This document shows positions 9,951 to 10,157 of a DNA stretch of 63,012 nt, in pieces. Origin of the DNA: Nanobdellota archaeon (lineage in GTDB: Archaea > Nanobdellota > Nanobdellia > Pacearchaeales > GW2011-AR1); contig JADFRY010000005.1 in NCBI GenBank assembly GCA_022561055.1, forward strand, positions 1 through 63,012. Reading direction: 5' to 3'. Under the pieces are notes generated by a model. The model worked only from the letters and a program-made list of their open reading frames with translations. It was not told the origin of the DNA and ran no database searches. Both the position numbers and the translations under genes were made by a program. How positions within the stretch are numbered: position 1 is the first letter of the stretch; every line of letters begins with the position of its first letter.

Positions 9951-9963
9951 AAACATTTAAATA
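9951..9963 (+). promoter_or_regulatory. Archaeal BRE/TATA promoter
   Basis: AAACA-TTTAAATA, 29 nt before G9985; related boxes at 301, 1088, 2127, 5006, 12061, 33369 and 47779. Confidence 0.65.
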
Positions 9964-9984
9964 CTATATATTTATGATATATTA

Positions 9985-10033
9985 GGCAAAGGGAGTTCCT
10001 AAATTCAATCTTTATGAAACTTTACTCCTCGCC
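9985..10033 (+). ncRNA. Short hairpin RNA, copy 1 of the shared module
   Basis: GGC-AAA-GGGAGT-TCCTAAA...TT-ACTCCT-C-GCC. Confidence 0.6.
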
Positions 10034-10042
10034 ATTCATATT

Positions 10043-10157
10043 CAAGACAAAAGAGGTTCCTAAAATTAAACCGGCGCCAGAGTTCCAGGTTCGAATCCTG
10101 GTCTCCTCGGAGATGGTGTAATGGCAACACGCTGGCCTTAAATTACCTCCCGTCTTG
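10043..10157 (+). ncRNA. Y-RNA-like RNA with a circularly permuted tRNA-like domain
   Basis: Closing stem CAAGAC/GTCTTG and GAGGT/ACCTC; T-arm 10085-10101, closed acceptor hairpin 10102-10113, D-arm 10116-10130. Confidence 0.8.

Follow-up and report, generated by a model that had tools for sequence, protein, structure and literature searches.

A candidate family of handle-bearing, tRNA-mimicking RNAs encoded beside P0001-type proteins in phages, Flavobacteriia and archaeal bins

We analyzed a 63,012-nt stretch of DNA (the window; positions 1 to 63,012 of contig JADFRY010000005.1, assembly GCA_022561055.1, assigned to a Nanobdellota archaeon), in which two tandem RNA candidates, RNA1 and RNA2, lie between a 50-amino acid open reading frame (ORF) and the 625-amino acid ORF of a protein termed P0001 (Table 1). 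Judged from sequence comparison, both RNAs belong to a large, widespread and so far unnamed RNA family, whose two-helix handle recurs beside P0001 homologs in phages, in Flavobacteriia and in contigs binned with archaea. On balance, we lean toward reading RNA1 and RNA2 as the stable non-coding RNAs of a Y-RNA-like ribonucleoprotein particle for tRNA/RNA repair or quality control, in which a P0001-type protein would be the partner.

A shared handle in RNA1 and RNA2

The module common to the two RNAs consists of a helix P1, an A-rich/C internal loop, a second helix P2 and the sequence GUUCCUA. In RNA1, P1 has 3 bp (9985-9987 with 10031-10033), AAA at 9988-9990 faces C at 10030, P2 has 6 bp (9991-9996 with 10024-10029) and is followed by UCCUAAA at 9997-10003, and a small apical hairpin pairs 10004-10007 with 10015-10018. 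The corresponding P1 of RNA2 is 6 bp long (10043-10048 with 10152-10157), AAAA faces CC, P2 comprises 5 bp (10053-10057 with 10145-10149), and UCCUAAAA occupies 10058-10065. A preliminary description of the window had claimed a stem module shared by both RNAs, and this holds: the helices differ in sequence yet pairing is intact in both, with the A-rich/C loop and UCCUAAA kept. ViennaRNA folds RNA1 and RNA2 as drawn here, with a z-score of -2.12 for the whole 173 nt. By eye, we ruled out that the AAA/C loop is a bulge-helix-bulge, as its bulges face each other rather than being offset by 4 bp, or a kink-turn, as it has no tandem G-A pairs.

RNA2 additionally contains a tRNA-like core, whose elements are encoded in the order anticodon-position stem, T arm, closed acceptor-like hairpin and D arm, as in a circularly permuted tRNA. 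The stem in the anticodon-stem position (10076-10080 with 10132-10136) has its 3' strand first and its 5' strand last. A 4-nt variable loop lies between this stem strand and a canonical T arm (10085-10101, loop UUCGAAU), the acceptor position is taken by a closed 4-bp hairpin (10102-10113), and equivalents of U8 and G9 (10114-10115) are found next to a D arm (10116-10130) with GG within its loop; there is a purine at the position-26 equivalent. The likeness to tRNA thus lies in the T arm, the D arm, the U8 and purine-26 equivalents and the short variable loop. RNA2 differs from tRNA (RF00005) in being permuted, in its 4-bp closed hairpin and in having no anticodon loop; it is called neither by ARAGORN nor by Rfam, and the Rfam tRNA model aligns to its T-arm half only, with 14.1 bits compared with a threshold of 29 bits. 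The reading of RNA2 as a permuted tRNA gene was ruled out: its acceptor-like stem closes into a 4-bp hairpin, and a linker, a discriminator and CCA are all missing.

Covariation, gene linkage and forms of the family

The module was first seen by eye, in several copies each, around the P0001 homologs of the Synechococcus phages S-CRM01 and S-CBWM1 and of phage Phass-1. We retrieved 80 IMG/VR loci with the P0001 protein alignment (a single-sequence search of viral contigs gave nothing), and a covariance model, R1, was built from a seed alignment, A2, of 71 sequences, comprising 70 short copies from relatives and RNA1, all picked for pairing. In this seed set, 97.7% of cells are paired, double changes occur in 10 of 11 pairs, and covariation reaches 0.699, compared with 0.255 in shuffles and at most 0.204 with slid partners. 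A second set of loci (hereafter genome loci) consists of the best 80 of 165 protein matches in one-genome-per-species contigs. Here, 99 R1 matches from 46 of the 80 loci lie outside model building; in an alignment fitted to R1, 97.2% of their cells are paired, 9 of 11 pairs show double changes, and covariation is 0.715 versus 0.287 in shuffles. RNAalifold recovers the same two helices unaided. The consensus handle, with GC-A-H-A in its 5' strand, has P1, the A-H-A/C internal loop, a P2 ending in invariant G-C and U-A pairs, and UCCUA. A conserved third hairpin in the short forms is possible: many copies show an apical hairpin of 3-4 bp, for which RNAalifold on A2 gave no consensus.

We also took all GTTCCT sites regardless of pairing and asked for both helices in a fixed geometry. 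They are present at 165 of 218 sites upstream of the gene on the gene strand, at 4 of 122 on the opposite strand, at 5 of 55 within the gene and at 56 of 4360 after shuffling of the downstream sequence. Across both strands of the window, R1 finds exactly two sites, RNA1 and RNA2; on the window's own assembly, where 150 of 1641 candidates were scored, the RNA1 site is the only one listed. Rfam 15, scanned with the window RNAs and their relatives, holds no family for the module. Our literature searches returned no description of the RNA or of the protein family, one 2016 survey of RtcB/RlaP neighborhoods and all supplements being outside their scope.

The linkage between module and gene is tight. 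In the phage and viral loci (404 kb, threshold E ≤0.01), R1 gives 221 matches in 80 of 83 loci, all of them on the gene strand and with 1-7 copies per locus (mode 3); in the three loci with no match, the contig ends at the 5' part of the gene. Positions were derived from loci with the gene start at position 1501 (207 matches): 192 precede the gene, 15 (in 7 loci) follow it and none falls within it, the last RNA ends a median of 25 nt before the start codon (72 loci), and neighboring copies are separated by a median of 12 nt. Among the genome loci, there are 188 matches in 77 of 80, again all on the gene strand; in two of the three loci that lack a match, hardly any DNA, or none, precedes the gene. 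Their carriers include many cultured Chryseobacterium, other Flavobacteriia, Erysipelotrichaceae and Pirellulaceae, as well as contigs binned with Woese-, Pace-, Prometh- and Thermoplasmata archaea. In total, the module lies next to P0001 homologs in 157 of 163 loci and is conserved with covariation, which agrees with the shared protein-binding module inferred in the preliminary description. For the reverse test, a bare 20-letter pattern led to 80 listed viral loci, 31 of which contain an R1 match, the rest being presumably due to chance. The gene is located within the same locus in 23 of these 31; locus L177 shares a contig with L070, which holds the gene; and L211 and L251 hold it elsewhere in the record, that of L211 being a complete 424-kb phage.

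The handle occurs in several forms. Short copies dominate (166 of the 221 phage and viral matches are ≤60 nt), and in further forms a longer hairpin is located inside the handle. A heuristic count places a permuted tRNA body as in RNA2 in at least 8 of 83 phage and viral loci and in 1 of 80 genome loci, to which visual inspection adds the window and L079. For 11 of these permuted RNAs, RNAalifold predicts P1 and P2 together with the T arm, the D arm and the closed acceptor-like stem, with compensatory change in 21 of 26 pairs. The opposite permutation is found in 8 of 83 phage and viral loci and in 42 of 80 genome loci. Here, a tRNA of ordinary appearance, its 7-bp acceptor stem open, carries the module in place of its anticodon loop, as a handle of ~45 nt in the order P2, C bulge, capped 2-3-bp P1, AHA bulge and GUUCCU. 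These tRNA-shaped relatives exceed the Rfam tRNA threshold despite the insertion (47.6-62.2 bits). Both versions described initially for the window, the module once bare and once with a tRNA-like domain, therefore recur across the family. Across these forms, the handle stays constant, whereas the tRNA portion and the place where the RNA begins and ends are free to vary.

Some loci show additional arrangements. Mini forms, in which the handle holds only a T arm and one hairpin, are found in L025 (891-969), L031 (1397-1472) and L001 (2889-2968). In L211 (3605-3720) and L214 (4427-4543, minus strand), a whole tRNA in standard order, with D arm, anticodon-like arm and T arm, is apparently nested in the apical loop of the handle, representing a fourth topology. 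On a Thermoplasmata-binned contig (L107, 1230-1306), ARAGORN reports a 'tRNA-???' with a two-base anticodon just 5' of the handle RNAs.

Table 1. Features of the window discussed in the text
Feature	Position	Strand	Basis
RNA1, short form	9985..10033	+	sequence; ViennaRNA fold; R1 43.5 bits (in seed alignment A2)
RNA2, permuted tRNA-like form	10043..10157	+	sequence; ViennaRNA fold; R1 30 bits, E 3e-6 (outside seed); RNAalifold on relatives
tRNA-like core of RNA2	10076..10136	+	sequence; ViennaRNA fold; RNAalifold on 11 relatives
P0001, 625 aa, proposed protein partner	10169..12046	+	homologs; AlphaFold2 model; structure searches
Promoter-like stretch, TTTAAATA box at 9956-9963	9956..9983	+	consensus match only
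RtcB RNA ligase of the window's virus, not adjacent	24662..25852	+	PF01139, 4e-114
RNA ligase (Rnl-type) of the window's virus, not adjacent	35422..36447	+	PF09414 and PHA02142 OB domain

The neighboring protein, repair genes and viral context

P0001 starts 11 nt after RNA2 with no Shine-Dalgarno motif seen, such motifs being present at 24 of 69 ORF starts in the window. More than 2000 relatives are found in metagenomes, in addition to those of S-CRM01, S-CBWM1 and Phass-1. P0001 has no Pfam match at E up to 0.01 and no PHROG match, sequence and profile searches of the PDB were empty or at chance level, and no enzyme family was detected. An AlphaFold2 model calculated with 35 homologs (predicted local distance difference test score, pLDDT, 83.4; predicted template modeling score, pTM, 0.80) contains a helical N-domain (residues ~1-378; pLDDT 79.2 when modeled alone), a TerD-like β-sandwich (~409-576) and C-terminal helices. 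The β domain superposes on TerD proteins, with a Foldseek E of 5.8e-6 for 3ibz and, in VIA comparisons, a Z of 8.9 for 2qz7_B (root-mean-square deviation, rmsd, 3.3; 137 aligned residues) and of 8.3 for 2kxt. The TerD Pfam model (PF02342) does not match P0001 at E up to 0.01, and it is from the predicted structure that we assign a TerD fold to this domain.

For the N-domain, no known fold was found: Foldseek returned nothing significant, the best VIA match (Z 7.8) covers only a helical hairpin (283-378), and an Atlas structural search with residues 1-378 named no family. A weak match to NF041916, the MXAN_6230/SCO0854 RING family, spans residues 400-471 (22.1 bits, E 3.7e-5), and an Atlas structural match to the same family has a TM score of 0.59. 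P0001 differs from this family in having no RING domain by Pfam and in scoring 22 bits, compared with the NF041916 cut-off of 600 bits; the two matches point to a distant link. Literature searches found nothing published on the MXAN_6230/SCO0854 family and no link to RNA for either TerD or NF041916 proteins.

RNA repair genes are frequent neighbors of the genome loci. Within 1.5-kb flanks, RtcB is encoded in 47 of 80 loci (42 upstream, 5 downstream) and RlaP in 13 of 80. The order in Flavobacteriia is rtcB, RNAs, gene, with rlaP next in some loci; in Chryseobacterium sp. MMS23-Vi53, RtcB is followed by a tRNA-shaped RNA, three short RNAs, the P0001 homolog, a small ORF and RlaP. This rtcB(-rlaP) neighborhood recalls the order of the rsr-yrlBA-rtcBA operon, the arrangement of YrlA/YrlB and Ro60 (Rsr) in RNA-repair loci of bacteria and phages. 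RlaP extends damaged RNA ends by one or two nucleotides and has been proposed to aid in restoring cleaved tRNAs (bioRxiv 10.64898/2025.12.29.696909). In the window's assembly (85.8% complete), no RlaP was detected. Canonical tRNA genes lie ≤1.5 kb away in 16 of 60 viral loci scanned, and the P0001 homologs of S-CRM01 and S-CBWM1 are located within tRNA clusters. Three Chryseobacterium genomes additionally have a canonical TROVE gene, in a different place where R1 has no match; the new RNA-protein pair therefore adds to Ro60 rather than replacing it.

Two further observations concern possible RNA-related neighbors. In two Chryseobacterium genomes, a Flavo-1 RNA (RF01705; L171 704-790 and L172 695-777, both plus strand; 61.9 and 65.3 bits, threshold 42) is found just past the 3' end of the canonical TROVE/Ro60 gene, on the opposite strand, and might be the partner RNA of this Ro60. 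In the window, the second gene after P0001 (12462-13691) encodes a 409-amino acid calcineurin-like phosphoesterase (metallophosphoesterase) whose N-terminal part matches a D5-like regulator PHROG. This protein could act as an end-healing enzyme for RNA; the flanks of the other loci yielded no homolog of it.

The window is one entire contig (C19) of a 929-kb assembly. It is AT-rich (~28% GC), and its plus strand bears nearly all long ORFs. Its portal/Mu-F protein, minor tail protein, family B DNA polymerase, Mom-like protein and tRNA cluster identify it as a tailed virus. The host may be an archaeon, since the closest P0001 relatives among genome bins are metagenome-assembled contigs of Woese-, Pace- and Promethearchaeota; binning itself is no proof of host. 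The 16S gene of the assembly scores 1329 bits with the archaeal and 1038 bits with the bacterial model. Within the tRNA cluster (47810-48283), Rfam identifies a tRNA at 48052-48133 (47.3 bits) on which ARAGORN is silent. The Mom-like DNA modification protein is encoded immediately 3' of the DNA polymerase, and the window also encodes a glycosyltransferase and a B12-binding radical SAM enzyme (positions for this group, 9114-9791, 15344-16645 and 17386-18690); together, they may form a DNA hypermodification set.

A transcription start had been predicted for RNA1 at G9985. This residue is indeed located 29 nt past the first T of TTTAAATA, and there is no support for the start beyond this consensus: the window contains 35 such sites compared with 26.6 +/- 5.2 in shuffles, and a box of this type is found at -29 of one among 69 ORF starts. 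The same bases also match a sigma-70-like promoter, TTTAAA-16-TATATT with an upstream TG and an estimated start near 9990, and matches of this kind are not in excess either (3 in the window versus 3.4 +/- 2.1 in shuffles). Since the tandem arrays of the family have 12-nt spacers, the arrangement suggests that the RNAs are processed from a common precursor rather than individually promoted.

A proposed Y-RNA-like particle and competing explanations

We compared the RNAs to YrlA, which, as far as it is described in PMC4201824, shares with RNA2 the order of the tRNA-like domain (T arm, closed acceptor stem-loop, D arm) and the location of the ends in an outside helix. A helical handle at the RNA ends, which is protein-binding in YrlA, and a smaller companion RNA alongside RNA2 correspond to the YrlA/YrlB pair. 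As in Ro60/YrlA loci, the RNAs are encoded at the side of the partner gene (here, the proposed partner) with RtcB nearby. Two relatives, L021 and L001, align full-length to the Rfam YrlA model (RF02553) with 39 and 35.9 bits, below its 69-bit threshold; RNA2 itself has no YrlA match at E up to 10. The domain order, these sub-threshold alignments and the rtcB/rlaP neighborhood together bear out the likeness to paired bacterial Y RNAs noted at the outset.

The handle of the family, P1-AHA/C-P2-GUUCCUA, is different from the GNCGAAN0-1G motif given for YrlA in PMC4201824. At the place of this motif, RNA1 has GGCAAAG and RNA2 has GACAAAAG, with A where the motif has G, and we treat the near-match as a lead only. 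The initial impression that the module does not resemble the canonical Ro60 site is supported. In contrast to YrlA/YrlB, the new family has arrays of up to 7 copies, and some of its forms have their ends in the acceptor stem. Circularly permuted structured RNAs are represented by two-piece tmRNA and by the permuted tRNA genes of algae and archaea. The present family resembles them in that one fold is encoded with differing end positions across lineages, and differs in that no linker or re-joining motif is evident, no bulge-helix-bulge is seen by eye, and RNA2 has no room for CCA.

In the Y-RNA-like particle that we favor, the handle would be the docking site for the protein encoded alongside, a member of the P0001 family, and the variable apical part, which ranges from a small or longer hairpin through a T arm to an entire tRNA body, would be the working end. 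RNA2 would then be a tRNA mimic whose ends lie in the handle rather than in an acceptor stem. Its tRNA-like part may recruit, or compete for, enzymes that recognize tRNA, among them RtcB, RlaP and processing enzymes, and the bare copies may serve as gates or competitors. In a virus, such a particle could keep tRNAs usable when the host cleaves them. The family may be counted among the Y RNAs while differing from those known in its handle, its protein partner and its range of permutations. A cis-regulatory role of the copy nearest the start codon may coexist with the particle role.

Several observations weigh against a Y-RNA-like particle. P0001 has no recognized RNA-binding domain and could be an enzyme acting on the RNAs rather than a scaffold. 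The repair ligases of the window are 14 and 25 kb away from the RNAs, and RtcB is found in the flanks of only 1 of 83 phage and viral loci. One locus, L087, carries the gene with no R1 match in its 1.5-kb flanks, and the gene was not seen in five RNA-bearing loci from the reverse test, three of them on records estimated to be 2-9% complete. The similarity between P0001 and Ro60 is also weak. Ro60 entries are among the few VIA matches that span most of the model or of the domain, at values within the noise of the tool for helical proteins: 1yvp_A has a Z of 5.1 (rmsd 5.5, 287 aligned), and 9l5y_B a Z of 5.3 with the whole protein (158 aligned) and of 5.9 with the domain (rmsd 7.0, 192 aligned). 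An hhalign comparison of the P0001 alignment A1 with TROVE, using a thin profile of three Chryseobacterium proteins, gave a probability of 0.5%; TROVE (PF05731) does not occur in the 25 listed of the 30 families obtained with the 35 homologs; and P0001, unlike Ro60 (Rsr), has neither a TROVE nor a vWA match and ends in a TerD-like domain. We therefore lean toward regarding homology to Ro60 as unlikely, with a possible likeness of architecture at most, and the neighbor is not a recognizable Ro60.

We considered three other explanations for the RNAs. They may work independently of P0001, as decoys or sacrificial substrates for tRNA-cleaving nucleases of the host, or as substrates that are joined or circularized by RtcB, with P0001 being an unrelated neighbor or a maturation enzyme. 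The tRNA mimicry in several topologies and the presence of an RNA ligase beside the locus or elsewhere in the genome would suit such roles, and the variable placement of the RNA ends, in the handle in some forms and in the acceptor stem in others, would be immaterial for a circular product. However, most copies have no tRNA part at all, the invariant elements are the handle and its loops rather than an anticodon-like loop, and the linkage to a single protein family, tight in both directions and kept up between distant lineages, suggests that RNAs and protein are direct partners. Roles of this kind are possible yet fit the data less well, and we consider them unlikely.

The RNAs could also be mainly cis-acting leader elements, in which P0001 or another factor binds the start-proximal copy and tunes translation or stability of its own mRNA, tandem copies being operator repeats. 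The short distance between the last RNA and the start codon, which also counts against a separate particle, the 11-nt gap with no Shine-Dalgarno motif in the window, and the location of everything on the same strand are in line with this idea. Against it, some matches are found downstream of the gene, the copies in L211 are kilobases apart with the gene elsewhere on the complete 424-kb record, a single locus may contain up to seven copies, arrays are located among tRNA genes, and full tRNA bodies that pass the Rfam tRNA threshold are hard to see as operators. A mainly regulatory role appears quite improbable to us. That the elements are decaying tRNA genes or mobile-element repeats with no function of their own, as T-arm and D-arm sequences and the tRNA clusters close by might indicate, is very hard to reconcile with compensatory changes in both helices across ~170 distinct sequences, with invariant loop nucleotides, with the strict confinement to the gene strand, and with a conservation that extends from cyanophages to the chromosomes of Flavobacteriia.

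A broader proposal, toward which we are inclined to be cautious, is that the family constitutes a Ro60-independent class of tRNA-mimicking ribonucleoproteins, in which a portable handle (P1-AHA/C-P2-GUUCCUA) is held by a helical/TerD-type protein and which acts with RtcB and RlaP in the surveillance or repair of tRNA damage. The handle is found alone, capping a permuted tRNA body, replacing an anticodon loop or apparently enclosing a whole tRNA, and its carriers comprise chromosomes of Flavobacteriia, cyanophages, a jumbo phage of 424 kb, and viral contigs from DPANN and Asgard archaeal bins. On this proposal, even a circular mature form is conceivable, since the RNA ends are not fixed in position.

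To our knowledge, Y RNAs are the only well-studied bacterial RNAs that equip an RNA-quality-control protein by tRNA mimicry, and they are tied to Ro60. The present family seems to accomplish this in a second way, with a different handle and a protein that belongs to no recognized family. If this is true, it would provide a function for a large orphan family of phage and bacterial proteins and an extra partner for RtcB/RlaP repair loci, and would explain odd tRNA-like genes that are caught by tRNA models through their tRNA bodies. The forms also provide a natural series of circular permutations in which to study how a tRNA body is presented to enzymes, and direct testing is feasible, as cultured Chryseobacterium strains hold the complete locus. 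For phage biology, the family points to a counter-measure against host defenses that cleave tRNAs.

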